NCBI GenBank assembly: GCA_023411405.1
Contig: JAEYOU010000117.1
Span: 1-41,274 of the forward strand
Direction of reading: 5' to 3'
DNA: 41,274 bases
Source of the DNA: Pseudomonadota bacterium
GTDB taxonomy: Bacteria; Myxococcota; Myxococcia; Myxococcales; Anaeromyxobacteraceae
A model generated the notes under the pieces. The model was not told the origin of the DNA, did not search any database, and worked only from the letters and a program-made list of their open reading frames with translations. The translations under genes were made by a program, and so were the position numbers. This document shows, in pieces, positions 175-36,502 of this stretch (position 1 is the stretch's first letter; each line of letters begins with the position of its first letter).

Positions 175-2625
175 TCAGGGTGCTCGCTCTGCCCAGTAGC
201 GTCGGCGCTGGAACGGATAGGTGGGGAGGGGCACTCGCTGACGCCGGGTGTGTGCCTGGTATGCACCCCAGTTCACGTCTACTCCTCCGCACCAGAGCGC
301 GCCCAGGCTGCCGAGAATGACCTCGGCGTCCGACCTCCCCTGTTCCGGAGGAGCGAGTGAGGTAAGGACCGTGCGCAGGGGGTCGAGTGCTCCGGCCTGC
401 GCCGGCCCGACCTCCAGCACAAGGGCGTCCCGCTCCTGGAGCGCTCGCAGCGCCTGCTGCGTCGACACCGCTACCTTGCGCTGCTGGGCGACCCAGTAGT
501 TCGGATCGATCGCCTGCGACGGGGTGATCCAGTCACCGGTGACGCCGGACAGGAAGCGACGGCTTGGACGGCTGAGCTTCGTTGCCTCGAGCTGCAGGTG
601 GAAGCTCGGCAGCTTCCGCGCCGCACGCTGCAACTCGGAAGCCGCGTGCGGAGCCTCGGGGGACGATGGCACGGGGCTCCATCGAGCGCAGGCCAGCAAC
701 AACGCGTCCTCGAGGGAGAAGACCCCGGCCAGACAGGCCGCCACGTACTCACCGACGCCAGCGCCGATCATGAGCCCAGGTTGGACGCCCCACTCCATCC
801 AGAGCTGCGCCAGCGCATACTCGATCGCGACGAGCGCGGGGCCTCCCAGTCCGCTCTGCCAGAGCTGCTCCGCTCGTCCGTCCGACGCAGCCGGCGGGAA
901 GAGGAGCCGGCGCAGCTCGAGCCCGAGCTGCGACCGAAGGAGGTCCGAGCACTGGTCCACGTGGGCGCGGAAGGTCGGCTCGGTCTCGTAGAGCTCCCGA
1001 GCCGTGGCTTCATGGCGCGTCTCGAGATCCGGGAACAGGAAGACGGTCGTCTGCCGGTCGGACGCCCGCGTCGGCAACGCGGGCGGGCCGCCGCTCTCCA
1101 GCGCAGCGGCCGCGTCCTGCATCTCGCGGCACACGACGCTCCGGCGATGTCCGAACGCCTTTCTGCCGACCTGGAGCGTGTAGGCCACGTCGGCGAGGCG
1201 GAGGTCCGGGTGCTGCCGCAGGTGCCGGGCCAAGGTCGCGCTCGCCGCGTCGAGCGCGTCGCGCGTCATCGCCGACAGGACGAGCAGCTGCGGCTGCCGG
1301 GTGGCCGCTCGCTGCGCGACAGGAACCTCCTCGAGGACCATGAAGACGTTGGTGCCACCCAGCCCGAAGGCGTTGACGCCGGCGCGACGCGGGTGACCAA
1401 TCGCCTCGAAGTCACGAAGGCTCTTGTTGACGAAGAACGGGCTGCCAGCAAAGTCGATCTGCGGGTGGGGACGCTCGAAGTGCAGGCTGGCCGGTATCTT
1501 CCCGCGCTCGAGCGCGAGCGCGGCCTTCACGAGGCTGGTCACGCTGGCGGCGGCGCCCAGGTGTCCGACGTTGGTCTTGACGGAGCCGAGCGCGCAGTAC
1601 TGCCTCCTGTCCGTGTGGGCCCGGAAGGCCCGCGTGAGCGCCGCCACCTCGGTCGGATCGCCCATCGCCGTCGCGACGCCGTGCGCCTCGACGTAGCCGA
1701 TGGTCTCCGGATGGACGCCCGCCGTGGCCAGGCACTCCGCGACGGCCTCAGCCTGCCCATCCACCCCCGGCGTCGCGAAGCCCATCTTCCGGGCGCCGTC
1801 GTTGTTGAGGGCGGAGCCCTTGATGACGGCGTGGATGAAGTCGCCGTCCGCCAGCGCCTCTTCGAGCCGCTTGAGGACCACCAAGCAGACGCCGTTGCCG
1901 CCGGCCACCCCCGCGGCGCGGGCGTCAAAAGCCCGGCAGTGCCCGTCCGGTGGGAAGTACCCGCCCTCCTGGTAGAGGTACCCGCAGGTCTGCGGGAGCA
2001 AGATCGACACGCCACCGGCCAGGGCCATGTCGCACTCCCGGCCGAGGAGGCTCTGATACGCCAGGTGAACGGCCGTCAGCGACGTGCAGCAGGCGGTCTG
2101 GACGTTGACGCTGGGCCCCCTGAGCCCAAGCTTGAAGGAGGCTCGAGCGGGCACATAGTCCGCGTGGTTCCCCACCGCCACCGCGAAGCCCGCCATCGAG
2201 ACGGGGACGCGAGGTCGGGGCAAGTACCTCTCGTACGTGCTGGCACCCGCGCCGGCGAAGACCCCGATCCTCCCCGGGTACTTCTCCGGAACGTACCCAG
2301 CGTCCTCGAGCGCTTCCCAGGCGCACTCCAGGAACACCCGGTGCTGCGGATCCAGGACGGTGGCCTCCTCCGGCGGAATCCCGAAGAACTCGGCGTCGAA
2401 CAGGTCGACGCCCTCGAGCAACCCCCAGGCCTTGACGTAGTGCGGGTCCCGGAGGACCGCCGGGTCCGACACGACGGCCTCCGCGTCGGAGAAGAAGGCG
2501 ATCGACTCCACGCCGTCCACCAGGTTTCGCCAGAGCTGCTCGACGTTCTTCGCTCCGGGGAAGCGCCCCGCCATCCCGACGATCGCAACGTCGCAGAGGT
2601 TGTCCTGCGGCTCGGCCTCGCTCAT
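175..2625 (-). CDS. Stand-alone type I PKS didomain: KS + degenerate AT, no ACP/TE (816 aa)
   Basis: ATG at 2625 overlaps the upstream TGA (TGATG). KS motifs VAIVGMAGRFPGA, QTACCTS, EAHGVAT, KTNVGH. AT active-site GHSxG replaced by GAGVGEY (745-765). Ends right after the post-AT linker LPTYPFQRRRYW. Confidence 0.9.
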   Translation of the reverse strand: MSEAEPQDNLCDVAIVGMAGRFPGAKNVEQLWRNLVDGVESIAFFSDAEAVVSDPAVLRDPHYVKAWGLLEGVDLFDAEFFGIPPEEATVLDPQHRVFLECAWEALEDAGYVPEKYPGRIGVFAGAGASTYERYLPRPRVPVSMAGFAVAVGNHADYVPARASFKLGLRGPSVNVQTACCTSLTAVHLAYQSLLGRECDMALAGGVSILLPQTCGYLYQEGGYFPPDGHCRAFDARAAGVAGGNGVCLVVLKRLEEALADGDFIHAVIKGSALNNDGARKMGFATPGVDGQAEAVAECLATAGVHPETIGYVEAHGVATAMGDPTEVAALTRAFRAHTDRRQYCALGSVKTNVGHLGAAASVTSLVKAALALERGKIPASLHFERPHPQIDFAGSPFFVNKSLRDFEAIGHPRRAGVNAFGLGGTNVFMVLEEVPVAQRAATRQPQLLVLSAMTRDALDAASATLARHLRQHPDLRLADVAYTLQVGRKAFGHRRSVVCREMQDAAAALESGGPPALPTRASDRQTTVFLFPDLETRHEATARELYETEPTFRAHVDQCSDLLRSQLGLELRRLLFPPAASDGRAEQLWQSGLGGPALVAIEYALAQLWMEWGVQPGLMIGAGVGEYVAACLAGVFSLEDALLLACARWSPVPSSPEAPHAASELQRAARKLPSFHLQLEATKLSRPSRRFLSGVTGDWITPSQAIDPNYWVAQQRKVAVSTQQALRALQERDALVLEVGPAQAGALDPLRTVLTSLAPPEQGRSDAEVILGSLGALWCGGVDVNWGAYQAHTRRQRVPLPTYPFQRRRYWAERAP

Positions 2626-5600
2626 CAGGACCTCCGCCGTCGCATCGCTGCCCTGCGTGCGGTACCCCGGCCCATGCTCTCCTCGAAGTTCTGCGACGTC
2701 GGCGCCCGGCCGACGAGCTCCGCCCATCCGCGCACCGTGGGGTTCCTGAAGATGTCGACGATGGGGATCTCCCTCGCGTACGTCTCCTGGAGCTTGCGCT
2801 GGACGCGCACCATCAGCAGCGAGTCACCGCCCACCTCGAAGAAGTTGTCGTGCACGCCCAGGCGAGCGACGTGGAGCAGCTCCTGCGTGAAGCTCGCGAT
2901 CGTCTGCTCCACCTCGTTGCTGGGCGCCACGTACTCCGATCTGGCCTGGTGCAATGCCTTCTGGCCCGGCGAGGGCAAGGCCCGGCGATCCACCTTGCCG
3001 TTGGGGGTGAGCGGCAACTCGTCCAGCACCACGTAGGTCGAGGGCACCATGTGCGCGGGGAGCTTGGCCTTCAGGAACGAGGCCAGCGCGTCCTGCTTGA
3101 ACCGCCGTGCGGTGGGAGGCGCCTGGGCGAGCATCACGTGCTGGCCCAGGCGCGCGGTCGCGTCGCCAGGCTCCGGGAAGGCAGCGAAGCGCGAGAACCC
3201 GCGAGCGAGGAGGAGCCGCTCCCACTCGCCTGGCGGGAGGAAGGGGACGTTTCGCTCCGTCCGCTCGTCGTCGAACGCGCTCATGCCCTCGATGAACCCC
3301 ACCGTCATCATCTGCCAGCGGGCGTAGCGCGTCCCCTCGACCATCAGCAGCACTCCCCCCGGCGCGAGCAGCGAGAGGAGGTTCGGCAGGGTCTGCTGCA
3401 GGCTCCGCGCGTCATGGAGCACGTTGGCGGCCACGATCGCGTCGTAGGCGTGCAGCGCGTAGCCCTGCACCTCCGGACCTTCGTCGATGTTCAGCAGGCC
3501 GTACTCGACGAACGGGTACTCCCGGAACTTCTGCCGGGCCTGATCCGTGAAGAACGTGGATCGATCGGTGTACGTGTAGACGGTCGCATCGGGCGGCAGG
3601 CGCGGCAGCAGCGAGGCCGTCGTCCCGCCGGTGCCGGCGCCAACCTCGAGCACCCGCAACGGCTGCCCGGCCGGCCACCGCCTCGCCAGCCCCTCCATCA
3701 CCCCCGCCGCGATGGCGTTGTAGTACTGCGACACGGGGTTGAACTGGTACAGGCTCTCGGCGGTCTCCCACGAGCCGCCCGGGAAGAAGAGGTCGAGCGG
3801 GTCCGCCTGCCCCCGGAGCATGGCCGTCAGGTGGGCTCCGCTCTCCGTCAAGTACGAGAGGAGCGCCTGCGCTTCCGACCCGACCTCTCCGGCGCCTCGC
3901 TGGAGTCGGTCCCACTCCTCGCGCTGCCTGTCCGGCAGGTCCGTCGGCAGGGGCTCCGGGCAGGCATAGGCCTCCCCTCGGCTCCGGAGCAGGCCCTCCT
4001 CACGAAGCGCCTCGAGCCACTGGCCCACGAGCTTCCGGTAACGGGGCAGGATCTCGAAGCGCGTCAGCAGCTCGTCCAAGGTGTGGGCGGCTCCCGCCTG
4101 TTCGAACGCGCCCAGCTCCCTGAGAGCGCGGCACAGGTATCCGATGCTCAGCCTGTCCAGGGCGTCCATGGCGCGCGCGAGGCCATCGAGGTCGGCGGGA
4201 GCACGCTTCGCCTGCGACCCTCCCGCGTCCACCAGGTGATCCCAGCGGAGCTGCACCTGCGCGGCGTCCGCCGTGTCCGTCTCGAACAGCTCCGCGTCCT
4301 TGCCTGGAGCGGGCACGATGTATGCGACGAGTTGCTTGTCGCCGCGCGGATCGCCTACCGCCTGCACGACCCCGGTACGCAGGCCCGGATGGCGCTCCAG
4401 CGTCGCCTCGATCTCGCCGAGCTCCACCCGGTGCCCGCGGATCTTCACCTGCGAGTCGTCCCGCCCCAGGAACTCGACGTTGCCGTCGGGCAGGTACCGC
4501 CCCCAGTCGCCGGTGCGGTACAGCCGTTCGCCGGTCCGTGGGTGAACGATGAAGCGGGCGCGGGTCTTCTCGTCGTCACGCCAGTACCCCTTCGCCAACC
4601 CGACGCCGCCGATGTAGAGCTCTCCGGGCACCCAGACCGGGCGAAGCTCGAGCCGGGCGTCGAGCACCTCGAGGGTCTGGTTCACCATCGGTCTGCCGTA
4701 CGGGATGCTCTTCCAGCCCGGCTCCACGCGACCGACGGGGTAGAGGATCGACCAGATCGAGGCCTCCGTCGCGCCGCCGAGGCTGACGACGGCGAGCGGC
4801 GCCTCGGCGCGCTCGCGGATGCGGTCGGGAAGCGTCACCGGGATCCAGTCGCCGCTCATCATCACCAGGCGCAGGGATGCGGGCAGCCGCCTCCTCATCC
4901 CCTCGACGTACTCGACGAGCATCTCCATCAGCTCGGGCACCGTGTTCCAGAGCGTGACCTGATGCTCCTCGAGGAGGCGGGCCCAATGCGCTGGATCGCG
5001 ACCCCCTCCCGCAGAGGGGATCACCACCGTCCCGCCGGCCCCCAGGACGCCGAACAGGTCGTAGACCGACAGGTCGAAGCTGAGGGACGAGAGCGCCAGC
5101 ACCCGATCGCGCGGCTGGACCCCGAAGCGCCGATTCACGTCCAGGCAGGTGTTGAGCGCGCCGCGATGGTCGATCATCACTCCCTTGGGCGCTCCCGTGG
5201 ACCCGGAGGTGAAGATGACGTAGGCAAGGTCGTCCGGCGACTGGACCGGCGCCGGGGAGGAGTCGTCCGCGTCCTCCCAGGCACGATCACCGATGACGAC
5301 ACGCCGGATCTCGGCGGGCCAGTCGAAGCTCCTGTCGATCCAGGGCTGCGTGAGGACGACCGACACCCCTCCATTCTCCAGGAGGAAGCGAACCCGCTCC
5401 GGAGGGAGCGCCGGGTCGATCGGGAGGTAGGCGGCTCCTGACGCCAGGACGCCCAACGCCGCCACGACCTGCTCCCAGCCCTTCTCCATCACGATCCCGA
5501 TCAGCTGGTTGGGACGAGCGCCGAGCTGCCGGAGCCGGTTGCCGACCTGGTTGGACCGACGATGGACCTCGCCGTAAGAGAGCGTGCGGAGCGGGGTGAT

Positions 5601-7250
5601 GATGGCCGGGAGGTCGGGGGCGTGCACCGCATGCTGGAGGAACGGCTGGTGGAGCAGGCCGTCCGGCACGGGTTCCCTCGTCGCGCTGATCGCCGCGCGC
5701 TGCTCCAGCTGGGCTTCCGGCACGAGCGTGAAGGACGATCCCCACGCCTGCGGCTCGTCGGCGAGTCGCCGCAGCAGCCGGCAGTAGGCGCCGAACATGT
5801 CGTCCAGCATCCCGGGCGGGAAGAGCTCCTCGACGGCGTCCCAGCTGAGCACCAGCGCACCGCGCTCCTCGAACACCTGGTGATCGAGCCACACCTGAGG
5901 AGTCTGGCTGACGCCAAACACGCTCCTGCCGAGCTCGGTGAAGGAAGAGATCTCCTGGCCCGCATCCTCCAGCGCCAGCGCGCTGGTGAAGACGACGGGC
6001 ATGCCGGACATGGCGGCGTGCCCCTGTGCGCGGGACAGCTCACGCAGGACGCGCACGCCGTTCACCTGGCTGTGCTCGAGGTCCTGCCAGAGCTGCTCGT
6101 GGATGCGCCGCGCATGCGCCTCGAAGCTGTCGGGCGAGCCGTCCACCTCGACCAGGATCGTCGCGGTGAAGTCGCCGACGACTTCGGTCACCTGGGGATG
6201 GAGCGGGAGCCGGTTGAAGTAGGTGAGGTTGAGCGTGAAGCGCGGGCTCTTGCTCCACGAGGCCAGCACCCTCGAGAAGGCCGCGAGGACCACCTCCGAC
6301 GGCGTCAGGTGGGCGCGGGACGCGTTCGCCCGGAGACGTCCCCAGGTCTCGGGGTCGACGGTCTCGCGACGCCGGACGAAGCGCGGCTGGGTCACGGCAG
6401 CAGGCGCCTTGGCCAGCGGCAGCTCGACCGAGCCCGGCATCGTCGCCAGGCGATCTCGCCAGTAGTTCAGATCGCGCTGGTAGCTCTCCGACGTCTCGAG
6501 CGCTGCCTGGGCCAGGACATAGTCGCGGAAGGAGAGCTCCAGGGGAGCGAGCCGCGCCTGGGGATCGCGGTAGAGCTGGAGCAGCTCGGCGAGCACGATC
6601 CGAGAGCTCCAGACGTCTCCCACCAGCAGGTCGAAGCTGATGTGGAGCCGCGTCACCCGATCGTCGAGCCGGCTTGCGCGCACCTCGAACAGCGGCCACT
6701 GGTCGGCGGGCAGCACCTGGTGCGACATGCGCTCGCGGATCGCCTCGAGCTCGCGCGCCTGCTCCTCCGGCGCCCGCCCTCTGAGATCCAGCACCTCGAT
6801 CCGGTAGGGGGGCACCTGCTCCAGGATCCGCTGGTGCCCGTCGGACAGCACGACCGCGCGGAGCATGTCGTGACGCTCCACGACCTTCTGCCAGGCGCAG
6901 CCAAAGCGCTCCAGGTCGAGGTCGTCGTAGTCGTCCTCGGTGTACGAGTGGCAGGCCACATTCCCGAGTTCGAACGCTCCGCTCCGCCCGAGCCAGTAGG
7001 CTCGCTGGATGTCGGTGAGCGGGAACGGCTCGTGGCGCTGCGCCGGCGCGGGCACGAGCGTCGGAGCCGAGCCCCCCTTTCCTCGTCGCTCGCGCAGGAG
7101 GGTGACCAGCTGCGCCTTGTGCGCCGTCAGCCGCTCCCGCAGCCCGGGCGTGAGCGTCCCCTCAGGCGCGCGGTAGCGCAGCCGCTCACCCTCCAGCCAC
7201 AGCTCCACGCCTTGCTTGGTCAGGTCACCCAGCAGCTCGTCCATGCTCAT
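2625..7250 (-). CDS. NRPS: N-terminal docking domain-Cy-A(Cys)-embedded MT-PCP (1541 aa)
   Basis: ATG at 7250 overlaps the upstream stop (ATGA). TubC-N-like start (LLGDLTKQGVELWLEGERLRYRAP); Cy motif DLLVGDVWS and SQTPQVWLD; A motifs YVIFTSGSTGAPKGV, FDLSVYD, GGATEASIWS (hand-read code DLYNMSLIW = Cys); MT VLEVGAGTGG / ANVLH inserted near the A C-terminus; PCP FFEVGGDSL. Confidence 0.93.
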   Translation of the reverse strand: MSMDELLGDLTKQGVELWLEGERLRYRAPEGTLTPGLRERLTAHKAQLVTLLRERRGKGGSAPTLVPAPAQRHEPFPLTDIQRAYWLGRSGAFELGNVACHSYTEDDYDDLDLERFGCAWQKVVERHDMLRAVVLSDGHQRILEQVPPYRIEVLDLRGRAPEEQARELEAIRERMSHQVLPADQWPLFEVRASRLDDRVTRLHISFDLLVGDVWSSRIVLAELLQLYRDPQARLAPLELSFRDYVLAQAALETSESYQRDLNYWRDRLATMPGSVELPLAKAPAAVTQPRFVRRRETVDPETWGRLRANASRAHLTPSEVVLAAFSRVLASWSKSPRFTLNLTYFNRLPLHPQVTEVVGDFTATILVEVDGSPDSFEAHARRIHEQLWQDLEHSQVNGVRVLRELSRAQGHAAMSGMPVVFTSALALEDAGQEISSFTELGRSVFGVSQTPQVWLDHQVFEERGALVLSWDAVEELFPPGMLDDMFGAYCRLLRRLADEPQAWGSSFTLVPEAQLEQRAAISATREPVPDGLLHQPFLQHAVHAPDLPAIITPLRTLSYGEVHRRSNQVGNRLRQLGARPNQLIGIVMEKGWEQVVAALGVLASGAAYLPIDPALPPERVRFLLENGGVSVVLTQPWIDRSFDWPAEIRRVVIGDRAWEDADDSSPAPVQSPDDLAYVIFTSGSTGAPKGVMIDHRGALNTCLDVNRRFGVQPRDRVLALSSLSFDLSVYDLFGVLGAGGTVVIPSAGGGRDPAHWARLLEEHQVTLWNTVPELMEMLVEYVEGMRRRLPASLRLVMMSGDWIPVTLPDRIRERAEAPLAVVSLGGATEASIWSILYPVGRVEPGWKSIPYGRPMVNQTLEVLDARLELRPVWVPGELYIGGVGLAKGYWRDDEKTRARFIVHPRTGERLYRTGDWGRYLPDGNVEFLGRDDSQVKIRGHRVELGEIEATLERHPGLRTGVVQAVGDPRGDKQLVAYIVPAPGKDAELFETDTADAAQVQLRWDHLVDAGGSQAKRAPADLDGLARAMDALDRLSIGYLCRALRELGAFEQAGAAHTLDELLTRFEILPRYRKLVGQWLEALREEGLLRSRGEAYACPEPLPTDLPDRQREEWDRLQRGAGEVGSEAQALLSYLTESGAHLTAMLRGQADPLDLFFPGGSWETAESLYQFNPVSQYYNAIAAGVMEGLARRWPAGQPLRVLEVGAGTGGTTASLLPRLPPDATVYTYTDRSTFFTDQARQKFREYPFVEYGLLNIDEGPEVQGYALHAYDAIVAANVLHDARSLQQTLPNLLSLLAPGGVLLMVEGTRYARWQMMTVGFIEGMSAFDDERTERNVPFLPPGEWERLLLARGFSRFAAFPEPGDATARLGQHVMLAQAPPTARRFKQDALASFLKAKLPAHMVPSTYVVLDELPLTPNGKVDRRALPSPGQKALHQARSEYVAPSNEVEQTIASFTQELLHVARLGVHDNFFEVGGDSLLMVRVQRKLQETYAREIPIVDIFRNPTVRGWAELVGRAPTSQNFEESMGRGTARRAAMRRRRS

Positions 7251-20854: not shown

Positions 20855-22072
20855 TCACACGTGCGTCATCGCGGTCACTGGGGACAACCGGGCCGCCTTG
20901 ACCGCGGGATACAGCGAGGCGAACACGCAGACGAGCCACATCGCGCCGATGGCGAGCGCGACGCTCGACGCGACGACCTCGCCGCGCAGCAGCGCGTCGA
21001 ACGCGATGCCGCCGAAGCTGAAGGACGCGTCACCGAAGACGCTCAGGTCGAGCCCATGCACCTGGGTGTACCAGGCGACGCTCACGCCGAGCGCCCCCCC
21101 GACGACGGTGGCCACGAGCCCGAGCAGGAAGGCCTCGGCCGCGATGTCCCCGACGATCCGCCAGGCCGTGGCCCCCAGCGCCTTCATGGTGCCGAACTCC
21201 CGCACGCGGTCGTGCGTGGCCATGAGCATCGTGTTCAGGACGCCCAGGCAGGCCGCCGCGAAGAAGATGAACATGAAGACGAGCGACAGCGCCTCGAAGA
21301 CCTGCACGAGGTTGAAGACGACCGGGAGGAGCTCTCCCCAGGTCTTGAGCTCGAGCCCAGGCGGCAGCGGCCCGAGCGCGGCGCCCAGCGCGGCCGCGGG
21401 GCGATCGCCGAGGCTGAACGCGAGCTCGTGGACCCGTCCCCCCGACACGAAGAGCGCCTCGAAGTCGGCCCGGTGGATCAGCACCGCCCCGCGATCGACC
21501 TCCTCGCTCACGGTCTTCAGGATCCCCGCGACGCGGAAGACCTCCGTGCCGAGTGAGCCGTCCGCCGCCTGCACCACGGCGACGAGCTCGCCACCCACGT
21601 CCAGGTCGAGGCTCCGCGCCAGCTTGCGGCCGATCACGACCTCTCGCGCCGGCGCGTCTCCCAGGAAACGACCCGCCATCACCTCTCCGGGCAGGGCGAA
21701 CGCCGCGCGCTCCGCCCGCGGCTCCACGCCCCAGAGGCTCGCGCCCGCCGACTTCGTCCCCGCCGCGATGAGCCCGTCCCCGTAAGCGCGCGCCACGGCC
21801 TGGATGCCCTGCGCGGACGCGGCCTCGACGATGCGCTCGGGAGAGGGGATCGCGTCGTGGAACCTGTGGGAGCGGAGATAGCCCACCGCGTGGAGCTGGG
21901 CGTCTCCCACGACCAGCCGCGTGGCGTTGTGGACGAGCAGGCGCTGGAACCCGCCGATCAGCCCGAGCGCGACGATCAGGACGGCGGTGTTCAGCCCCAC
22001 CGCGACGATCGTGATCGCGCTCCTTCGCCGGTTCCGAAGGAGGTTGCGCCAGGCGAGCCGGAAGTCGGACAC
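20855..22072 (-). CDS. Second ABC transporter permease, FtsX/LolC-E type (alternative GTG start at 22081)
   Basis: LAWRNLLRNRRRS, MATHDRVREFGTMKALG, SLYPAVKAARLSPV. Confidence 0.9.
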   Translation of the reverse strand: MSDFRLAWRNLLRNRRRSAITIVAVGLNTAVLIVALGLIGGFQRLLVHNATRLVVGDAQLHAVGYLRSHRFHDAIPSPERIVEAASAQGIQAVARAYGDGLIAAGTKSAGASLWGVEPRAERAAFALPGEVMAGRFLGDAPAREVVIGRKLARSLDLDVGGELVAVVQAADGSLGTEVFRVAGILKTVSEEVDRGAVLIHRADFEALFVSGGRVHELAFSLGDRPAAALGAALGPLPPGLELKTWGELLPVVFNLVQVFEALSLVFMFIFFAAACLGVLNTMLMATHDRVREFGTMKALGATAWRIVGDIAAEAFLLGLVATVVGGALGVSVAWYTQVHGLDLSVFGDASFSFGGIAFDALLRGEVVASSVALAIGAMWLVCVFASLYPAVKAARLSPVTAMTHV

Positions 22073-22077
22073 GGCCT

Positions 22078-22854
22078 TCACCGCTCCAGGTTCCGAAGCG
22101 AGAAGAAGTCGTCCGAGAGCGGGATGTCGAAGCGCAGGTCGTCCTGCCGAAGCTCGGTGAGTTCGTTGGGCTTGTCCGTCACGGTGACCCTCATGACGAG
22201 CGGCACGGTGCGCTGTCCGACCCGCTTCGGCTCCTCGAAGACCATCGTGCGCGCGAGCTTCATGTCCTCGCCGAAGAAGAGCTGCCGGAGCGCCAGGCAG
22301 CTCTCTGCGTCGACCTCGACCGCCACCTTCCCCCAGACGATGGCCGCGTCCGGCTTGGGGATGCAGGTCACCTCGACGATGTTCCGGCCGTCCCGCGCGC
22401 CAGTGAAGGTCTTCTCGAACGTGTAGTCCTCGCTCATCCGGCTCTCCTTCACGAGGTCGTCGTTCGTGACGTGGCTCCCCATCCACGAGCTCGTCATCAT
22501 CGAGGCCGGGACCTTGATGGTCCGCCTGACCTTCGGCAGGTAGTTCCAGACGTTCTTCTCGACCATCAGCGTCGCCGTGCCGTGCTCCTTCGCCGGCGCA
22601 ACGATTCGCACCAGCGATCGCCGGACTCCCTTGCTCCAGGCCTCGAGCTTGAGAGTCCGCGTCCAGTGAGCCGTGACCACCTTCATCGTCGCGGTCCGGT
22701 GAGAAGACGTGCCTCGGTACATGTCGTCCACGCGATCGAGGATCTCCTTCGCGTCGAGCTGTGAGCACGACTGCGCCGCAGCCACACGCGGCGCCCCGCC
22801 GAGCGAGACGAGCAGCGGCACCACGATCGCCGAGCGAGAGCAGCGGAATGCCAT
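22078..22854 (-). CDS. Outer-membrane lipoprotein-sorting (LolA-like) periplasmic protein
   Basis: Signal peptide; motifs PAKEHGTATL, WNYLPKVRRT, SWMGSHVTNDDL, DDFFSLRNL typical of the LolA-like family. Confidence 0.85.
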   Translation of the reverse strand: MAFRCSRSAIVVPLLVSLGGAPRVAAAQSCSQLDAKEILDRVDDMYRGTSSHRTATMKVVTAHWTRTLKLEAWSKGVRRSLVRIVAPAKEHGTATLMVEKNVWNYLPKVRRTIKVPASMMTSSWMGSHVTNDDLVKESRMSEDYTFEKTFTGARDGRNIVEVTCIPKPDAAIVWGKVAVEVDAESCLALRQLFFGEDMKLARTMVFEEPKRVGQRTVPLVMRVTVTDKPNELTELRQDDLRFDIPLSDDFFSLRNLER

Positions 22855-22918
22855 GCGTCCTTCCCCTTCTTCGCTCGTCCGCGTACGTCGACGGTCGCTC
22901 CGGGGAGCGCACGAAGAA

Positions 22919-22930
22919 TGATCTAGATCA
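22919..22930. promoter_or_regulatory. Perfect palindrome TGATCTAGATCA, CRP/FNR-family-like operator
   Basis: ATGAT-CTAG-ATCAG vs FNR consensus TTGAT-N4-ATCAA; lies in the divergent intergenic region. Confidence 0.5.
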
Positions 22931-23171
22931 GTATTTCGCTTCAGGAGCAGGCCTTCCCGCCCGGTGAACCCAGTCGTCGTGGCGCCAGAGCCTGCCTTCA
23001 GCTCGAGTCGCGGGGCACGCTATCAGCACTCGGTTCCCCACGCAGCCTAGGACCGCCGGTGTACCCACCATGGGTGCAACCTTGGATGGATGACAGTCTC
23101 CCCATTCGTGTGGTTCCTAATCGTCATACTCTGGGTTGCTGCTACTGACGGTCCGTTGCGGAGGCCATGAG

Positions 23172-23939
23172 GTGACCACAAGCCGCGAGCGAGCGGGGCT
23201 TCTCTGCCTTCCGTACGCGGGTGGGTCCGCGAGGATCTACCGCAGGTGGAGCGAGGAGCTCGGTCCCTCGATCGAGGTCGTTCCGCTTGAACCCGCGGGG
23301 CGCGGTACGCGCTTCGGGGAGCCCTTCCCCACCTCCATCGCCGCGGCGGTGCACGACCTCCAGAGGCGCGCCGCGCCGGCGATCCGCGGCAAGTACGCGC
23401 TCTTTGGCCACAGCATGGGCGCGCTCCTTGCCTGGGAGCTGGCGCGTGCGCTCGTCTCCGCCTCGCTCCCGCCTCCGGAGCAGCTCTTCCTCTCGGGCAA
23501 GCCGCCCCCCCACGTCGTGCCGCGAAGACCTGTCCACGCGCTGCCCGAGGCCGAGTTCTTGCGGAGCGTCGCCGCGATGGGTGGAACGCCGCGCGAGGTG
23601 CTCGAGAACGACGAGCTCATGCAGATCTTCCTGCCCGTCCTCCGCGCGGACTACCGGATGACGGAGACGTACGCTCCGCGGTCCGAGGTCGACCCACTGG
23701 ACTGCGGCATCACCTTCTTCTTCGCCACCGCCGACCCAACGCTCTCGCGCGATCAGGTGGAGGGCTGGCGGCGCTATACGCGGGGGGAGTTCCGGATCCT
23801 CGACCACGAGGGCGGGCACTTCTTCCTGCTCGAGAAGGGACGGGAGCTCGCCAGGGAGATGCGGCACGTCCTCGGTCGACCGGAGAGCACCCGCCCGGCG
23901 CCCATGTTCGTGGAGGCGGGTGACCGCGTCGAGGTCTGA
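23172..23939 (+). CDS. Type II (editing) thioesterase
   Basis: CLPYAGGSA, GHSMG, LPVLRADY, GGHFF; GTG start preceded by GGAGG. Confidence 0.92.
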   Translation: MTTSRERAGLLCLPYAGGSARIYRRWSEELGPSIEVVPLEPAGRGTRFGEPFPTSIAAAVHDLQRRAAPAIRGKYALFGHSMGALLAWELARALVSASLPPPEQLFLSGKPPPHVVPRRPVHALPEAEFLRSVAAMGGTPREVLENDELMQIFLPVLRADYRMTETYAPRSEVDPLDCGITFFFATADPTLSRDQVEGWRRYTRGEFRILDHEGGHFFLLEKGRELAREMRHVLGRPESTRPAPMFVEAGDRVEV

Positions 23940-24007
23940 CTGCGCCAAGAGCAAGCACGCGGCGCCGCGAGCTGCCCGAGCGGCGCGGCGCACGGGAGAG
24001 GTGTGTC

Positions 24008-25339
24008 ATGAGCGGCGAAGCCTCCGTGACGAGGAAGGTACCCAGGGTCGCGGCACGAGCACACGGGACCACGGAGCCTCGCCGGCCGGCGTGGGGCCGC
24101 TTCGACGGAAGCCTCCTCGACGCCTGGCAAGCGCGCGCGGCCGTCCTCGAGGCGGAGGTGCCATCCCCGCACGACCCGGAGTCGCGCGCCTATCTGGAGG
24201 CGATGGCCGCGTCCGACTTCTCCCCGTTCTTTCGGCGCCTCGAGTCCGCTGCGGCCGAGACCGCCGTCATGGACGGCTACCGGGTCGTCATGCTCGGCGC
24301 CAACAACTACCTGGGCCTCACGACGGACCCGCGCGTCACGCGGGCGAGCATCGCTGCAATCGAGCGGTACGGCACGGGCTGCACCGGCTCGCGGTTCATG
24401 AACGGCACGTTGCCGCTGCACCTCGAGCTCGAGAGCCGGATGGCCCGCTTCCTGCGCAAGGAGGCGGCGCTCGTGTTCAGCGCCGGGTTCCTCGCCAACA
24501 TCGGTGTCCTCTCCGTCGTGGCGGGCCGGCACGCTTACCTGTTCTCGGATCGTGCCAACCACGCCAGCATCTGCGACGGCATCTCGGCTTCGAGGGCCGA
24601 GCCCATGCGGTTCGAGCACAACGACCCGGACTCGCTGGCGGAGAAGCTCCGCCGCGCCCCTGCCGCCGCGGTGAAGTGGGTCGTCGTCGAGGGCGTCCAC
24701 AGCATGTTCGGCGACGTGTGCCCTCTGCGTGAGATCATCGCGGTCGCCAGGGCCCACGGAGCGCGGATCATCCTCGACGACGCCCACGGGGTCGGCGTGT
24801 TGGGGGACGCCGGGCGGGGGACGGCGAACCACCTCCAGGTCGAGGACGAGGTGGATCTGATCGTCGGCACGTTCAGCAAGTCCTTCGCCTCCTACGGCGG
24901 TTTCGTCGCGGGCGATCGAGGCACCATCGAGCAGCTGCGCTACGGGACCCGTTCCTTCATCTTCACCGCAGGGCCACCGCCGGCGACGGTCGCGACGGTG
25001 CTCGCTGCGCTCGACGTGCTCGAGCAAGATCCTGCGATCGTGAGCCGGCTGCGGCAGAACACGCTCGAGCTCGCCGGCCGCCTGCGCGCGGCAGGGCTCG
25101 TGGATCGGGATCCGCCCGCCGCGATCATTCCGCTCGTGATCGGGTCCAACGACCGCACGTGGAAGGCATGGAGGCTGCTCTACGAGGGCGGTGTCTACAC
25201 CAACGCGGCCTTCCCCCCTGGGGTTCCGGCGGGCCAGGCGCTCCTTCGCCTCTCGCTGATGGCGACCCTGCGTCCGGAGTCGATCGAGTACGCCGCAAAC
25301 GCCATCACCTCGGCGTTCCGCGTGCTGAGGCTGACGTGA
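24008..25339 (+). CDS. spt: PLP-dependent alpha-oxoamine synthase, serine palmitoyltransferase-like
   Basis: NNYLGL, GTGCTGSRFMNGT (Spt-type), NHASI, DDAHG, GTFSKSF (PLP Lys); adjacent to bCerS-like and CerR-like genes. Confidence 0.8.
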   Translation: MSGEASVTRKVPRVAARAHGTTEPRRPAWGRFDGSLLDAWQARAAVLEAEVPSPHDPESRAYLEAMAASDFSPFFRRLESAAAETAVMDGYRVVMLGANNYLGLTTDPRVTRASIAAIERYGTGCTGSRFMNGTLPLHLELESRMARFLRKEAALVFSAGFLANIGVLSVVAGRHAYLFSDRANHASICDGISASRAEPMRFEHNDPDSLAEKLRRAPAAAVKWVVVEGVHSMFGDVCPLREIIAVARAHGARIILDDAHGVGVLGDAGRGTANHLQVEDEVDLIVGTFSKSFASYGGFVAGDRGTIEQLRYGTRSFIFTAGPPPATVATVLAALDVLEQDPAIVSRLRQNTLELAGRLRAAGLVDRDPPAAIIPLVIGSNDRTWKAWRLLYEGGVYTNAAFPPGVPAGQALLRLSLMATLRPESIEYAANAITSAFRVLRLT

Positions 25340-26499
25340 CCTCGGCCTTCGCGCGGAACGCGCCGATCGTCGGGGGCGGCCCTCTCGAGGTGACACCTGT
25401 CGGCGGGGCCGAAGACCTTCGAGAGTTCGTGGAGCTGCCGGAGCGGCTTTACCAGGGAGTTCGTCACTGGGTGCCGCCGCTCCGCTCCGAGGAGCGGCGC
25501 TTCCTCTCGGAGAGGAACCCCTACGTCGCCGCAAACCCGGTGCGCCTGTTCCTGGCGCGTGAGCGTGGCGTGCCGGTGGGCCGCGTCGCCGCGACCGTGT
25601 GCAGCGCGCACAACGCGTACCACCACGAGCGAACGGGGTTCTTCGGCTTCTTCGAGTGCGATGGACGGGCGGTCACGGCACGCGCGCTGCTAGGCGCCGC
25701 CGCCCAGTACGTCCGCGACCACGGCATGCGGACCCTCCGCGGGCCGTTCAATTTCACGACCAACCACACGTGCGGCGTGCTCGTCGAAGGATTCGAAGGC
25801 CCCCCGATCATCGAGATGCCCTATCACCCGCCACACTACGGCGCGCTCCTCGAGGACGCTGGGCTCCGCAAGGCGAAGGACCTGTTCGCGCTCTGGCACG
25901 ACATCGAACAGGGGAAGCCACAGCGACAAGCGCTCGCGGGGCTCGCGCGCGCCGCGCCCGCCGCGTACGCCGTGCGGGAGCTGCGGCGCTCGGGGCGAGG
26001 CTTCGCGGAGGACATGGACCGCTTCTACGACCTCTATCATCAGGCCTGGCGGGGAAACTGGGGCTTCGTCCCGGTCCCACGCGACGAGTTCGTCTACATC
26101 GGGAGGCGGATGCAGTCTCTCTTGAGGCCCGGGCTCTGCCACGTGGTCACGGTCCGGGGGGAGACGGCCGGGATGGTGATCAACCTCCCCGACTACAGCC
26201 CGGTGCTGTCCGCGCTCCGGGGCCGAGTGACGCCCGGGGGCGCCTTGCGGGCCTGGTGGGCGAGCCGTCGCGTCGACGCGAGCCGCTGCATCCTCGTCGG
26301 CGTGTACGATCGGTTCCGGGGAACGCCGGCCACCACCCTGCTCGTGCACCACCTGCTCGAGGGAGCGGCGCGAGCGGGGTACCGAGGCGTCGAGACCTCG
26401 TGGGTGCTGGAGGACAACGCCGCATGCCTTCGAGGCTTCGGGAAGCACGGGTTCGTGCCGTACCGGCGCTACCGGATCTACGAGCAGCCGGTGGCCTGA
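25336..26499 (+). CDS. GNAT-fold N-acyltransferase, bacterial ceramide synthase (bCerS/YghO)-like (387 aa)
   Basis: GTGA overlap with spt; motifs WVPPL, GRVAA, GFFGFFE, LRGPFN, MPYHPPHY, WRGNWGFVP, SWVLEDN, YRIY. Confidence 0.78.
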   Translation: MTSAFARNAPIVGGGPLEVTPVGGAEDLREFVELPERLYQGVRHWVPPLRSEERRFLSERNPYVAANPVRLFLARERGVPVGRVAATVCSAHNAYHHERTGFFGFFECDGRAVTARALLGAAAQYVRDHGMRTLRGPFNFTTNHTCGVLVEGFEGPPIIEMPYHPPHYGALLEDAGLRKAKDLFALWHDIEQGKPQRQALAGLARAAPAAYAVRELRRSGRGFAEDMDRFYDLYHQAWRGNWGFVPVPRDEFVYIGRRMQSLLRPGLCHVVTVRGETAGMVINLPDYSPVLSALRGRVTPGGALRAWWASRRVDASRCILVGVYDRFRGTPATTLLVHHLLEGAARAGYRGVETSWVLEDNAACLRGFGKHGFVPYRRYRIYEQPVA

Positions 26500-26510
26500 A
26501 GGGGGGCGCC

Positions 26511-27512
26511 ATGTCCGTGCCACGTACAGGCGACGACTCCGTGCTGGTCACCGGCGCCAGCGGCTTCATCGGCCGGGCACTCGTCTCGGAGCTGATGCTC
26601 CAGGGGCGGAACGTCAGCGCACTGGTCCGGCGGCGCGAGCAGGCGATCGCGCTCGGTGCCCGGCCGGTGGTCGGCGATGTCACCGACCCCGACTCGCTCG
26701 TCGGGTTCGGCGCGTTCTCGGAGGTGTACCACCTGGCCGGCACGATCGCGGCGCGGAGCGCCGCCGAGTTCCAGCGCATCAACGCGGACGGGTGCTGCCA
26801 CCTCTACCGCGCGCTGCGGCGCGCCCTCCGCCCTCCCCGGCGCATCGTCCACGTGAGCAGCATCGCGGCTGGTGGGCCGGCCGCAGACGCGACGCCTCGA
26901 CGCGAGGACGATCCGGACGTACCCGTGTCGATTTACGGCCGCACCAAGCACGCCGGCGAGGAGGTCGCGCGCGCCTTCATGGGCGACATTCCACTCGTCA
27001 TCCTCCGGCTGCCCGCCGTGTACGGCCCCGGGGACCGAAACCTGCTCCCCATCTTTCGCATGGCACGGCGCGGGCTCGTTCTGCGCCCGCCGGCGCAGCC
27101 CAAGCTCTTCAGCCTCGCCCACGTCGGCGACGTCGCGCGCATCCTGATCCGCGCCGCGGCGACGGAGTCGATCGTCGGCGGGCTCTACAACGTCGCCACC
27201 GGCTCGCCCGCGAGCTGGGACGAGCTCGTGGCCGAGATCGGCGCCGCCATGGGCCGCCGCCCGCGCCAGCTCTCGCTGGGCCGGCTGCCGTGGGTGGCGG
27301 CGGCCTACGCCAACGCGGGCCGCTGCTGGCTCGAGCGCGGAGCCCGCGTCGAGCTGCTCATCCCGCAGAAGCTCCCCGAGCTCTTCGAGCGCTACTGGCA
27401 CGTGGATGGCGGGCGCCTGCAGTCGGCGCTGGGCCACGTCACGACGACGCCCCTGGCGCAGGGGCTCGCGCAAACGGCGGAGTGGTATCGCCAGCAGGGT
27501 TGGCTGCGATGA
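26511..27512 (+). CDS. Extended SDR / NAD-dependent epimerase-dehydratase family; candidate ceramide (3-keto) reductase
   Basis: VLVTGASGFIG, HVSS, YGRTK, LRLPAVYGP; role inferred from gene context. Confidence 0.8.
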   Translation: MSVPRTGDDSVLVTGASGFIGRALVSELMLQGRNVSALVRRREQAIALGARPVVGDVTDPDSLVGFGAFSEVYHLAGTIAARSAAEFQRINADGCCHLYRALRRALRPPRRIVHVSSIAAGGPAADATPRREDDPDVPVSIYGRTKHAGEEVARAFMGDIPLVILRLPAVYGPGDRNLLPIFRMARRGLVLRPPAQPKLFSLAHVGDVARILIRAAATESIVGGLYNVATGSPASWDELVAEIGAAMGRRPRQLSLGRLPWVAAAYANAGRCWLERGARVELLIPQKLPELFERYWHVDGGRLQSALGHVTTTPLAQGLAQTAEWYRQQGWLR

Positions 27513-28360
27513 GGGCCCCCGTCGAGCCGTTGCCCGCCCCGGACCGCGAGGACTCCCTGGCCGCGCTTGGACGACTGGTCCCCCGTGCCCTGGGACCACT
27601 CTTCCTGGACAAGGCGGGACAGATCCTCCTCTCGACCGTCGTCCTCATCCTGCTCTGGGGCGCTCACGGACGATGCGAGCTCCTTCGCTTGGCGCTCCCA
27701 GGATGGACCGGCCCGGGAAGCGACCCGCGCGCGCGGTCGCGCTTCATCCCGTGGGTGCCGTGGGATCACGAGCTGATCTCGTTCGCGCTCGGCGCGTTGC
27801 TGCTCGTCGTGGTCCCGATGGCGCTCGTGAAGCTCGTCTTCCGCGAGCCCCTCGCAGCCTACGGCCTCGGGCTTCCGCCCGCTGGACGGCGGTGCGCGGC
27901 GCGATGGGTGTTCGCGCTGCTCCTCGTCCTGTCCCTGCCCGCGTTCTGGGCCTTCGCGCACGACCCCGAGTTCCAGCGGGTGTACCCCTTCTATCGCCGC
28001 TTCGCCGGCTGGGGGGAGTTCGCGGCCTACGAGGTGACGTACATCGCATTCTTCGTCGCGATCGAGTTCATCTTCCGGGGCTATCTCCTGTTCGGGCTGG
28101 CCGGGACTCCGCTCGGCCGCGCAGGATCTCGGTTCGCCGGACAGCGCGACCTTCCCGGCTTCGCGCTGCTCATCCAGATGCTTCCCTACACGGCCTGGCA
28201 CCTCGGGAAGCCCACGGCGGAGCTCTGGGGGACGCTGTTCTGGGGGTTCGCGTCGGGCCTGGGCGCCTGGGCGGCGCGCTCGATCTGGCCCGTGGTCGCG
28301 GCCCACTGGCTGCTGAACGTCTTCATGGACGCCTTGATCTGGAGGGCGAATGGCGGGTGA
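27509..28360 (+). CDS. CPBP (Abi/CAAX) family intramembrane glutamic protease-like protein (283 aa)
   Basis: Multi-TM; IEFIFRG, YTAWHLGKP, AAHWLLN motifs; ATGA overlap with upstream gene. Confidence 0.8.
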   Translation: MRAPVEPLPAPDREDSLAALGRLVPRALGPLFLDKAGQILLSTVVLILLWGAHGRCELLRLALPGWTGPGSDPRARSRFIPWVPWDHELISFALGALLLVVVPMALVKLVFREPLAAYGLGLPPAGRRCAARWVFALLLVLSLPAFWAFAHDPEFQRVYPFYRRFAGWGEFAAYEVTYIAFFVAIEFIFRGYLLFGLAGTPLGRAGSRFAGQRDLPGFALLIQMLPYTAWHLGKPTAELWGTLFWGFASGLGAWAARSIWPVVAAHWLLNVFMDALIWRANGG

Positions 28361-29168
28361 GACGCAGCGTCGGGACGAGTCGAGGGGAGCAGCCCTGGTC
28401 GGAGCCGCGCTTCCCTCCGACCAGCACCCGGAGCCTGCCGTGGCGGGCGCGGCGCTGAAGGCGACCGTCATCGTGGGCGTCACCGCGCTCTGCATCGCCG
28501 CGATGCTCGCACTGGGGATGGGGTTCGGGCGCGAGGTCTGGCTCACGCGCGCGTTCGGCGTGACGCTGTTCGGGAGCGACGTCTACCTGGGGACGTGGTT
28601 CCTGTTCATGTGCATGCCCGTGGTCGGCTTCGGCGTGCCGTGCTTGGTGATCCGGCGCGTGTTTCGCGAGAAGCTCGAGGACTACGGTCTCACGCTCGGC
28701 GACTCCCGCCCAGGCGTGGTCGCGCTGCTCGCCGCAGTCCCCGCCCTGGTCACGCTACCGCTCATCTCGAGCGCCATCGGGACCGAGCACTACTACGACT
28801 ACCTCCTCCTTCCGTCGTTCGTCGTCCCCTGGAAGATCGCCTTCCACCTCACGAGCTACGCGGCGTTCATCTTCGGGTACGAGTTCCTCATCCGCGGGTT
28901 CCTCCTCATCGGCCTCGCCCGCGCCTGGGGTGGGGATCGCAGGGCCCGCCTCGCCGCGCTCGCGGTATCGGCCGTGCTCGCGCCGCTGATCTTCATTGGG
29001 ACGCCCCCGCTCGTGTTCGTGCTCTCGTTCGCGATCTTCGCCTGGATCGGCGGTCCCCTCGCGCTCCGCACGCGCAGCATCATGTACTTCGCGTTCATCG
29101 AGTGGACGCTCGGCATCTGGTCCGACGCGTGGGAGATCATCAAGCTCAACGCGCGGTTCCCTGGCTAG
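28350..29168 (+). CDS. Degenerate CPBP-like membrane protein
   Basis: FREKLEDYGL and YEFLIRG resemble the neighbouring CPBP, but the His motifs are replaced (LIFIGTP; FIEWTLG). Confidence 0.65.
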   Translation: MAGETQRRDESRGAALVGAALPSDQHPEPAVAGAALKATVIVGVTALCIAAMLALGMGFGREVWLTRAFGVTLFGSDVYLGTWFLFMCMPVVGFGVPCLVIRRVFREKLEDYGLTLGDSRPGVVALLAAVPALVTLPLISSAIGTEHYYDYLLLPSFVVPWKIAFHLTSYAAFIFGYEFLIRGFLLIGLARAWGGDRRARLAALAVSAVLAPLIFIGTPPLVFVLSFAIFAWIGGPLALRTRSIMYFAFIEWTLGIWSDAWEIIKLNARFPG

Positions 29169-29283: not shown

Positions 29284-29685
29284 TCACTTCGACCAGGCGG
29301 CCTCGCGCCGGCGCTCCTCGCAGATGGCGGCGATCCCGTCCTCGATGGTCGCGGCCTCGGCCGTCGAGGCGTCGTAGCGGACGCCGCTCGTGTTCACCCA
29401 GAGACGAACCCGGGCGTCGCTGTGGACCCGGTACGAGTGCCGCGTGAAGTTCTTGTGGACCCGGGCTCGGTACTCCCCCCAGCGCGGCGCGACCGCGGGG
29501 TTGAGCCTGAACCCGGTCAGATCGACCACCAGGTCCATCCGCCGGCCGGGGAAGTTCTTCTCGAAGTAGTCGGCCCATACCTGGTACCACGGCTCCAGGT
29601 CGGCCTCGGTCTCGATGTGCCAGCGGGACGTGGCGATGACCACGTCGTTCTCGGCGTCGTACTGGAAGTCGATGGTTCCGCTCAT
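29284..29685 (-). CDS. Small hypothetical protein, possibly STAS/SEC14-like fold (133 aa)
   Basis: GC-biased codons; alpha/beta pattern (DLVVDLTGFRL ... ATIEDGIAAI). Confidence 0.6.
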   Translation of the reverse strand: MSGTIDFQYDAENDVVIATSRWHIETEADLEPWYQVWADYFEKNFPGRRMDLVVDLTGFRLNPAVAPRWGEYRARVHKNFTRHSYRVHSDARVRLWVNTSGVRYDASTAEAATIEDGIAAICEERRREAAWSK

Positions 29686-29739
29686 TGCGCGCTCTTTCTG
29701 TCGCTCGGCGACTCCCTCGTGCACGGGCTCCGTCCACCG

Positions 29740-35126: not shown

Positions 35127-35129
35127 GGC

Positions 35130-36394: not shown

Positions 36395-36502
36395 GCTCGG
36401 ACACCCCTGATGCTCTACCGGATGTTTACAAGATGCGCCGGCACGCCGCGCGGCTGGACGGCGACCGCGGGCCCCGTGTCCCGCGATCGCCGTTCTGGGC
36501 CG

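Follow-up and report, generated by a model that had tools for sequence, protein, structure and literature searches.

Does an assembly line of polyketide synthase (PKS) and nonribosomal peptide synthetase (NRPS) modules hand its thiazole-containing chain to a ceramide-type pathway when the genes for the two face each other in one locus? This question is raised by contig JAEYOU010000117.1 (C341 in our numbering; 41,274 nt), which was analysed over its entire length, hereafter the window, and is the longest of the 733 contigs of a myxobacterial metagenome-assembled genome (MAG) that is 87% complete with 4.2% contamination. Analysis of GC content at third codon positions (GC3) by frame, lists of open reading frames (ORFs), and Pfam and NCBIfam scans resolved positions 175-29168 into two divergent operons, one on the minus strand (22854-175) and one on the plus strand (23136-29168), with about 280 nt between them. 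We tentatively suggest that this 29-kb locus is one lipid biosynthesis-and-export island, in which the chain would be off-loaded by an alpha-oxoamine synthase (AOS) resembling serine palmitoyltransferase (SPT; bacterial Spt). With slightly more reserve, we propose that a ceramide cassette was recruited as the release-and-tailoring end of the PKS-NRPS, and that a heterocyclic 'ceramide' might be placed in the outer membrane by a LolA/LolCDE-like system together with a beta-barrel. Modular thiazole NRPS-PKS lines and bacterial ceramide cassettes are both known kinds of system, and the locus is a plausible, as yet unproven, variant of them. The genes are arranged as follows.

175-2625, minus: ketosynthase (KS) with a degenerate acyltransferase (AT), 816 aa from an ATG at 2625; Pfam KS_N, KS_C and linkers; neither acyl carrier protein (ACP) nor release domain
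2625-7244, minus: TubC-type docking domain, cyclization domain (Cy), presumably Cys-type adenylation domain (A) with an inserted C-methyltransferase (C-MT), and peptidyl carrier protein (PCP); Pfam TubC_N, Condensation, AMP-binding, Methyltransf_12 and PP-binding
7247-14230, minus: hybrid PKS-NRPS, KS-AT-ACP-Cy-A-PCP-oxidase (Ox) by Pfam, A domain presumably Cys-type
14238-14540, minus: stand-alone carrier protein, ACP0, 100 aa, with serine motif YGMTSI, between the dehydrogenase and the PKS
14557-15732, minus: acyl-CoA/ACP dehydrogenase (ACAD), 391 aa; Pfam Acyl-CoA_dh N, M and C; its start overlaps the stop of the following entry
15729-17525, minus: adenylating enzyme of the fatty acyl-AMP ligase (FAAL) type; AMP-binding, 5.9e-66; FAAL models rank top in NCBIfam
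17608-18912, minus: secreted beta-barrel protein by predicted fold, 434 aa
18912-19622, minus: ABC ATPase by Pfam; NCBIfam LolD/DevA best, below cut-off
19619-20845, minus: FtsX plus MacB_PCD permease by Pfam; NCBIfam lolCE best, below cut-off
20855-22081, minus: second FtsX plus MacB_PCD permease by Pfam; NCBIfam lolCE best, below cut-off
22078-22854, minus: LolA-like periplasmic protein; PF17131, 6.9e-42; hydrophobic N-terminus read as a signal peptide
23136-23939, plus: type II thioesterase (TEII), first gene of its operon; PF00975, 4.3e-42, 145 bits; GHSMG
24008-25339, plus: Spt-like AOS; best solved matches SPT; NCBIfam Spt models top, below cut-off
25336-26499, plus: bCerS-like GNAT acyltransferase; weak Pfam match (E 1e-3); GTGA overlap with the AOS stop
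26511-27512, plus: CerR-like extended short-chain dehydrogenase/reductase (SDR); Epimerase family, 8.2e-30
27509-28360, plus: CPBP membrane protein; Rce1-like, 4e-7; NCBIfam MrtA, 1.4e-15; four to five hydrophobic segments
28350-29168, plus: degenerate CPBP-like membrane protein; no Pfam match; NCBIfam MrtA, 5.5e-5; four to five hydrophobic segments

Every domain that a first-pass annotation of the sequence had listed between 175 and 29168 was recovered from the ORFs, Pfam and NCBIfam. The 434-aa secreted protein was not described there, and of its two CPBP proteins the first was borne out as Rce1-like, while the second is degenerate and recognised by the MrtA model only. Adjacent genes in both operons mostly overlap at their stop and start codons, for example as GTGA, ATGA, or TGATG behind GGAGG. 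Scans of 1-400 and 22700-23300 for promoters and terminators found nothing.

The ceramide-type cassette and its acquisition

When we compared the AOS with solved structures, the best matches were SPTs (3A2B/8GUH, 5.7e-97; 2JG2, 2e-82), compared with 6.1e-66 for the best non-SPT match (KBL/BioF), and its Lys/His/Asp motifs for pyridoxal phosphate (PLP), HASI, DDAH and FSKS, align with those of SPTs. The scores lie below all NCBIfam Spt cut-offs (413.5 vs 640, 385.8 vs 500, and 312.4 vs 670 bits). Judging from its sequence, we place the enzyme in the Spt clade of the alpha-oxoamine synthases. More than 4000 homologues, each about 370 aa long, were found for the GNAT, and we examined the synteny of 185 GNAT-matching loci, two of which are the window itself and a few of whose contigs are present twice. 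In the other 183 loci among the matches listed, an Spt-like AOS lies within 6 kb of the GNAT homologue (30-43% identity) in 128, Myxococcus and Sphingobacteriaceae included, and an SDR homologue lies within the same distance in 87. These cassette loci span many phyla, and the arrangement of Spt, bCerS and CerR is as given in the available portions of published work (PMC11334938, PMC11087976); the lone GNAT seen in Cloacimonadota loci likewise agrees with what is reported there on bCerS of that phylum (PMC11334938). No solved bCerS structure was found. The SDR is of the NAD(P)-binding extended type and carries the motifs TGxxGxxG and YxxxK. It was also considered as a thiazoline reductase, and this role was rejected because SDR homologues adjoin the GNAT in cassette loci. 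Given this synteny and SPT as the best solved match of the AOS, the trio is a real, strongly diverged Spt-bCerS-CerR-type cassette, as the first-pass annotation had read it, and the TEII gene precedes the AOS at the head of the operon as it had also noted.

The divergence of the cassette was evident in several comparisons. First, identity to cassette members in other genomes is 27-47% (AOS 39-47%, GNAT 30-41%, SDR 27-39%). The cassettes of relatives in the same order are 54-81% identical to named Myxococcus loci, which places the host in the Myxococcales. Second, in a FastTree phylogeny of 100 GNATs, the window protein pairs with P0002 (78% identity) within a 12-member clade of metagenome proteins, with branches of 0.47 and 0.74 and support of 100 at both nodes. 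Third, the AOS deviates at 5 of the 52 columns that are at least 95% conserved among 117 cassette AOSs, where the others show a median of 0 and a 95th percentile of 3 deviations; the GNAT deviates at 2/37 and the SDR at 1/26 conserved cassette columns.

The closest described pathway is that of Caulobacter. As far as the available portions of the reports describe it (PMC11087976, PMC11324152, PMC11334938), it shares with the window the same three families in one operon, an SPT-like AOS, and nearby genes for an acyl-activating enzyme, a carrier and envelope transport; AasR and AcpR supply Spt with acyl-ACP there (PMC11324152). In contrast to that pathway, the window cassette sits on a long branch, shares its operon with a TEII and CPBP proteins and faces a PKS-NRPS, and the transport genes of the window are Lol/MacB-like, not Lpt-like.

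Two other loci with related enzymes were seen. In a Myxococcus dinghuensis record (L075), an MlaC lipid-transport gene (12234-12845) comes right after an ordinary Spt-bCerS-CerR trio, with no ACP or acyl-ACP synthetase seen alongside. The MAG itself encodes a second AOS (locus L095, contig G000:C157, 10727-11989), which is 47% identical to the window AOS and adjoins genes for a DNA ligase and a hybrid histidine kinase; its presumed orthologues (44-48% identity) are found in about 9 of 24 genomes from the genus, which are without bCerS.

A bCerS-like GNAT was found in only one of the 24 other genomes of the genus, and weakly (33%), compared with 12 of 16 genomes from the other families of the order, 11 of them clear. 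Since it was not found in the remaining 23 genomes or elsewhere in the MAG, the cassette is not a housekeeping copy of the host. The contig has a GC content of 70%, against 73.2% for the median contig, and GC3 is 0.877-0.943 for all 22 genes measured on it, those of both operons included, against a host median of 0.951. At the left end, positions 1-58 of the window are identical to 6124-6181 of another contig of the MAG (C182; G000, L094), an internal intergenic stretch upstream of a scramblase gene, after which the sequences diverge; this identity may mark an island or rearrangement junction. At the right end, there is a Mutator-family transposase fragment (40710-41252), and the last 126-132 nt overlap the ends of three contigs (C319, C125 and C178), which indicates a repeated insertion sequence copy. 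We suggest that the locus is probably an island acquired horizontally by a member of the Myxococcales.

The assembly line and the exporter module

Both Cy domains contain the DxxxxD motif, which reads DLLVGD in the second NRPS module, and the residues seen in both A domains fit a specificity code that we take to be Cys-type. The first of the two modules ends, as thiazole-forming modules do, in an Ox domain of the nitroreductase type (FMN oxidase) by Pfam. The methyltransferase region within the second A domain is closest to the CurJ C-MT (5THY, 6e-61), followed by DisA, AprA MT2 and the citrinin PKS C-MT, and is thus nearer to PKS C-methyltransferases than to N-methyltransferases. The AT of the first PKS module is intact (GHSLG, VASH). 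No ketoreductase (KR) domain was detected by Pfam in the line, so the beta-keto group would remain after extension. From this domain order, the expected chain should consist of an alkenoyl-beta-keto unit, a thiazole and a 4-methylthiazoline.

A precedent for this pair of modules is found in the thiamyxin line of a myxobacterium, in which modules 7 and 8 are a consecutive HC-A-PCP-Ox (thiazole) and HC-A-cMT-PCP (methylthiazoline), and this agrees with the thiazole and C-methylthiazoline chemistry of the first-pass annotation (PMC10100342). Unlike the window, thiamyxin assembly as described in the accessible text runs over 12 modules from a GNAT loading domain to a terminal thioesterase (TE), and that text gives no FAAL, AOS or ceramide genes (PMC10100342). 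Among 300 genomes of the order, the methyltransferase-bearing form of the NRPS has a single full-length relative, at 49% identity, in genome G227 (L229, G227:C202). This is a thiamyxin-like fragment with A-Ox-PCP, P450, TE, Cy-A(cMT)-PCP and C-A, whose related module pair is 49-62% identical to that of the window and adjoins the P450 and TE genes. Cy-A modules of 48-57% identity occur in 79 of 146 genomes of the large-genome family of the order and in 82 of the 300 overall, a tally that includes G173, flagged as unpublished and used for no other result. No cassette genes were present in the three NRPS-relative loci examined. The nearest relatives of the NRPS, the docking domain and the exporter are in Myxococcales genomes.

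The last protein of the line is unusual. Its KS retains the Cys, His and His residues (TACC, EAHGVAT, NVGH), while the AT has GAGVG instead of GHSxG and lacks about 75 residues of the small subdomain, matching positions 1-116 of 319 in the Pfam profile. The protein ends 5 residues beyond the post-AT linker, and its start overlaps the NRPS stop as TGATG with GGAGG ahead. Its best non-self homologue is 55% identical, and the relatives listed are ordinary KS-AT proteins, many with ACP, TE or KR and many of them KS-AT-ACP-TE. As the first-pass annotation had stated, no type I thioesterase (TE-I), reductase (R) or terminal condensation (C) domain was found within the window by Pfam and NCBIfam, the contig edge lying 174 nt past the last gene. 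Other PKS/NRPS fragments of the MAG (C12, C426, C486, C591 and C129) were considered as a continuation of the line and rejected on composition, with a GC content of 73-74.5% and GC3 of 0.95-0.98.

Of the accessory enzymes, the FAAL candidate is ranked first by FAAL models at scores below their cut-offs (PRK05850, 482 vs 775 bits; another, 435.7 vs 922), and it and the ACAD weakly match the NCBIfam MbtM and MbtN models. The TEII has the GHSMG and GGHFF motifs and the stand-alone PF00975 domain that characterise type II thioesterases, and one homologue, P0242, is 71% identical to it.

The exporter module consists of the LolA-like protein (LolA_like, PF17131), two FtsX/MacB_PCD permeases, the ATPase and the 434-aa protein. 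The first-pass annotation had called it Lol-like; this description stands, with scores under the Lol equivalog cut-offs (lolCE, 114.8 and 102.3 vs 362 bits; LolD, 200.6 vs 307.8 bits and tied with DevA). The 434-aa protein has a signal-peptide-like N-terminus and a C-terminal YF, and matches nothing in Pfam or NCBIfam. An AF2 model from 12 sequences gave an all-beta barrel with a mean pLDDT of 80.8, for which Foldseek retrieved MOMP, AlgE and chitoporin at TM about 0.5, and in the ESM Atlas the nearest clusters are unnamed ones and one with DUF1302 in 41% of its members. The protein is therefore a predicted outer-membrane beta-barrel of the exporter. A LolA-fold protein, FtsX-type permeases, an ATPase and an outer-membrane barrel are also combined in LolCDE-LolA, MacB-type exporters and DUF1329/DUF1302 pairs. 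By its scores, the module probably works like Lol or MacB, yet is not a member of the LolCDE/LolA system. The order of the five genes is preserved in three further Myxococcales loci (L215, L217 and L218; G190:C203, G092:C411 and G196:C41) at 33-64% identity, and a fourth contig breaks off within the module. Two of the three complete loci have a TetR gene upstream, and the available flanks contain no biosynthetic genes except a SnoaL-like cyclase and short-chain dehydrogenases. Since the five genes recur elsewhere as a unit, the exporter is a mobile cassette recruited here and is not peculiar to ceramide or NRPS pathways.

Coupling of the two operons

In the pathway that we infer, from the flow and order of substrates through serine as co-substrate to export of the product, FAAL would load a fatty acid onto ACP0 and ACAD would desaturate it. 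KS-AT-ACP would add one extender unit with the beta-keto group kept, Cy-A-PCP-Ox would add cysteine as a thiazole, and Cy-A(cMT)-PCP would add cysteine as a 4-methylthiazoline. The line lacks its own release domain; release and tailoring would fall to the diverged ceramide cassette: the Spt-like AOS would condense the carrier-bound acyl chain with L-serine under decarboxylation, the bCerS-like GNAT would N-acylate the amine, and the CerR-like SDR would reduce the 3-ketone. The product would be a ceramide-like lipid with thiazole and methylthiazoline on the long-chain base, which the LolA-like protein, the LolCDE-like transporter and the beta-barrel would carry to the outer membrane, while TEII would keep the carriers free. 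The terminal KS with its dead AT may carry out a further condensation and then pass the chain to an ACP acting in trans, and the hand-over of a chain from PigJ to PigH is a model for such a step after a terminal KS.

Several observations favour this coupling. First, the genes of both operons are packed closely, stop codons overlapping start codons, and TEII, an enzyme of carrier proteins, heads the Spt operon. Second, the window lacks a release domain, and the genus is otherwise without bCerS. Third, the sequences point to an SPT-like AOS with PLP motifs and to a GNAT and an SDR of Spt-flanking families. Fourth, the cassette is strongly diverged, and both operons share a composition shift away from that of the host. 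Finally, SgaAB and thiamyxin offer precedents by analogy. In the SgaABC system of Pseudomonas fluorescens MYb115, as the available part of the report describes it, a megasynthase cluster includes a stand-alone AOS with proven SPT activity and a ketoreductase (PMC12134224). PKS-derived sphingolipids made through such an AOS have thus already been published, and an AOS taking a PKS chain into sphingolipids is no longer unprecedented (PMC12134224). The two systems differ, however, since SgaA is one iterative type I PKS making plain alkyl chains, SgaC is of the KDSR type, and the described cluster has no bCerS or NRPS (PMC12134224). The window line is modular with two Cy modules and a full bCerS/CerR cassette, and does not belong to the SgaAB type. 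That paper also cites FUM13 and SphF, and its list of 6101 SgaAB-like clusters could include related loci (PMC12134224).

If both operons serve one molecule, bacterial sphingolipid enzymes would accept non-fatty, peptide-derived chains, and assembly lines would gain a new off-loading route, the first release of an NRPS chain by Spt. Myxobacteria would be predicted to have an outer-membrane lipid rich in sulfur and possibly metal-binding, a new class of envelope lipid. The locus would also hold a candidate dedicated transporter for a ceramide-type lipid; according to the available text of a 2024 Caulobacter study, bacterial sphingolipids still lack an identified flippase or lipid transporter (PMC11087976). 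A full-text literature search, with supplementary files and MIBiG outside its scope, found no description of a Cy-NRPS joined to Spt/bCerS/CerR.

More distant parallels exist in the MBC branch of prodigiosin biosynthesis (PigA/PigJ/PigH), fumonisin Fum8 and saxitoxin SxtA, where an ACAD-type oxidase, a KS lacking an ACP of its own, or an AOS that condenses serine or another amino acid acts on a carrier-bound chain. In PigH, Fum8 and SxtA, however, the AOS has its own ACP, either fused to it or preceding it, whereas the window AOS stands alone and no ACP comes after the last KS.

Here, we need to consider the points that weigh against a single pathway. The link between the operons rests on gene order in one contig, with no independent instance. 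The thioester attacked by Spt would sit on a quaternary ring carbon, which is unlike any Spt substrate known to us. The terminal KS would take the chain from the last PCP but has no ACP, which leaves the hand-over to the AOS undefined, and because the contig edge lies 174 nt beyond the stop codon of KS-AT, the absence of a further gene is not proven. Elsewhere, the five exporter genes form a cassette of their own. Searches of 40 relatives, of 300 genomes from the order and of 400 from the phylum gave no homologous composite locus, and there was none among the matches listed from contig collections. Within these sets, the best non-self AOS matches reach 47-48% (40 relatives) and 48% (300 genomes of the order), and no GNAT matched at E 1e-85 or better in the 400 genomes of the phylum. 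Contig-collection scans with the AOS, a GNAT alignment and P0003 yielded only distant cassettes of at most 43% identity among the matches listed; a metagenome scan with P0006 did not recover P0006's own contig. Of the other bCerS-type loci listed, 0/183 showed a gene for a TEII, a Cy-NRPS, a CPBP or a LolA-like protein inside a 6-kb distance. P0002 is encoded on a contig of 17.5 kb and P0003 on one of 108 kb, and none of the best 119 TEII or best 119 KS-AT matches is on a contig equal in length to those of the nearest GNAT relatives, P0002-P0012, although this check is indirect. Finally, by analogy with AasR/AcpR in Caulobacter, FAAL and ACP0 could feed Spt directly.

Such direct feeding leads to an alternative with two products, which we regard as possible but rather unlikely. 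Here FAAL, ACAD and ACP0 would provide acyl- or 2-enoyl-ACP for two routes, the Spt cassette, giving an ordinary or 4-unsaturated ceramide, and the PKS-NRPS, giving a lipothiazole-methylthiazoline acid that is hydrolysed off, for example by TEII, and the exporter would move one or both. Stand-alone thioesterases do release some products, the AOS retains its SPT-like catalytic motifs, and the GNAT and SDR depart from the cassette consensus at only the two and one columns given above. The window has analogues of all the Caulobacter parts without needing the NRPS; the available text on that organism reports that its Spt prefers acyl-ACP from a dedicated synthetase and that its sphingolipid region encodes LptC2/F2/G2 (PMC11324152). 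Other cassettes speak against this alternative: the Myxococcus locus L075 shows no adjacent ACP or ligase, and a FAAL-like match lies within 6 kb in only one of the 183 other cassette loci listed (L080), where only the ligase was queried and ACP was not searched. In addition, FAAL-ACAD-ACP0 stands directly ahead of the PKS in the same operon, TEII is in the ceramide operon and not in the NRPS operon, and the divergence of the cassette far exceeds what an ordinary ceramide role requires. If the operons do prove separate, the locus would still illustrate in compact form how a diverged ceramide cassette moves within a genomic island.

Compared with two products, a decayed or incomplete line is the less probable explanation, and we consider it unlikely. 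The last module would have lost its ACP and TE and had its AT gutted, or the genes would continue past the contig end, and the cassette would merely be a neighbour. The nearest relatives of KS-AT, as ordinary modules and often KS-AT-ACP-TE, would fit such a loss, as would an AT without nucleophile and small subdomain in a protein that stops 5 residues after the post-AT linker. The nearby contig edge, the C182 stretch in the first 58 nt, suggesting a rearrangement junction, and the Mutator transposase with repeat ends at the other end of the contig point in the same direction. However, the catalytic triad of the KS is kept, the 816-codon frame is intact with a coding-type GC3 of 0.88, and GGAGG precedes its start, which is translationally coupled to the NRPS. 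In the AT, one subdomain has been cleanly excised and the linkers remain, which looks like a retained scaffold and not like fresh damage, and the other PKS/NRPS fragments of the MAG, being different in composition, are unlikely continuations.

We consider it quite improbable that the GNAT itself releases the chain. In that case, Spt would make a normal keto-sphingoid base from acyl-ACP0 and serine, and the GNAT would use the PCP-bound lipothiazole-thiazoline as donor, so that the heterocycles would be on the N-acyl chain. Aminolysis would account for release in the absence of a TE, the clade of the GNAT has diverged strongly, and carrier-protein-using GNATs exist, such as MbtK with its FAAL/ACP/ACAD set MbtM/L/N, whose MbtM and MbtN models the window FAAL and ACAD weakly match. 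There is, however, no direct evidence for this route, the GNAT retains 35 of the 37 conserved columns of the cassette family, and the terminal KS would be likewise unexplained. That the contig joins DNA of different strains or belongs to another genome, as its 733-contig assembly with 4.2% contamination, its lower GC content and the position of the 58-nt match internal to C182 might suggest, is very improbable, given continuous gene order with stop/start overlaps across the whole 29 kb, a database copy of the window's GNAT, KS-AT and TEII on two contigs (the longest 41,288 bp) and the Myxococcales affinity of the NRPS, docking domain and exporter, and mis-binning would leave the locus itself unbroken.

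Neighbouring genes

Downstream of the plus operon, two small high-GC3 ORFs without family assignment lie on the minus strand (29284-29724 and 29740-30273), followed by an AraC-type HTH protein (about 30520-31413), which has a long C-terminal part and may be a local regulator. An SNF2 helicase with DUF3670 and then a SWIM zinc-finger protein occupy 32421-36017, and the pair is unrelated to the cluster. A 146-aa ORF on the minus strand (36062-36502) matches positions 105-199 of 295 in the PALP (cysteine-synthase-type) profile; it is probably a gene fragment and adjoins a Porin_4 gene. Elsewhere in the MAG (L096, G000:C135, 4704-11018), a 2104-aa protein combines fatty-acyl reductase, AMP-binding, carrier protein and acyltransferase regions and is flanked by two epimerase-type SDRs; we take it to resemble the ether-lipid genes of myxobacteria.

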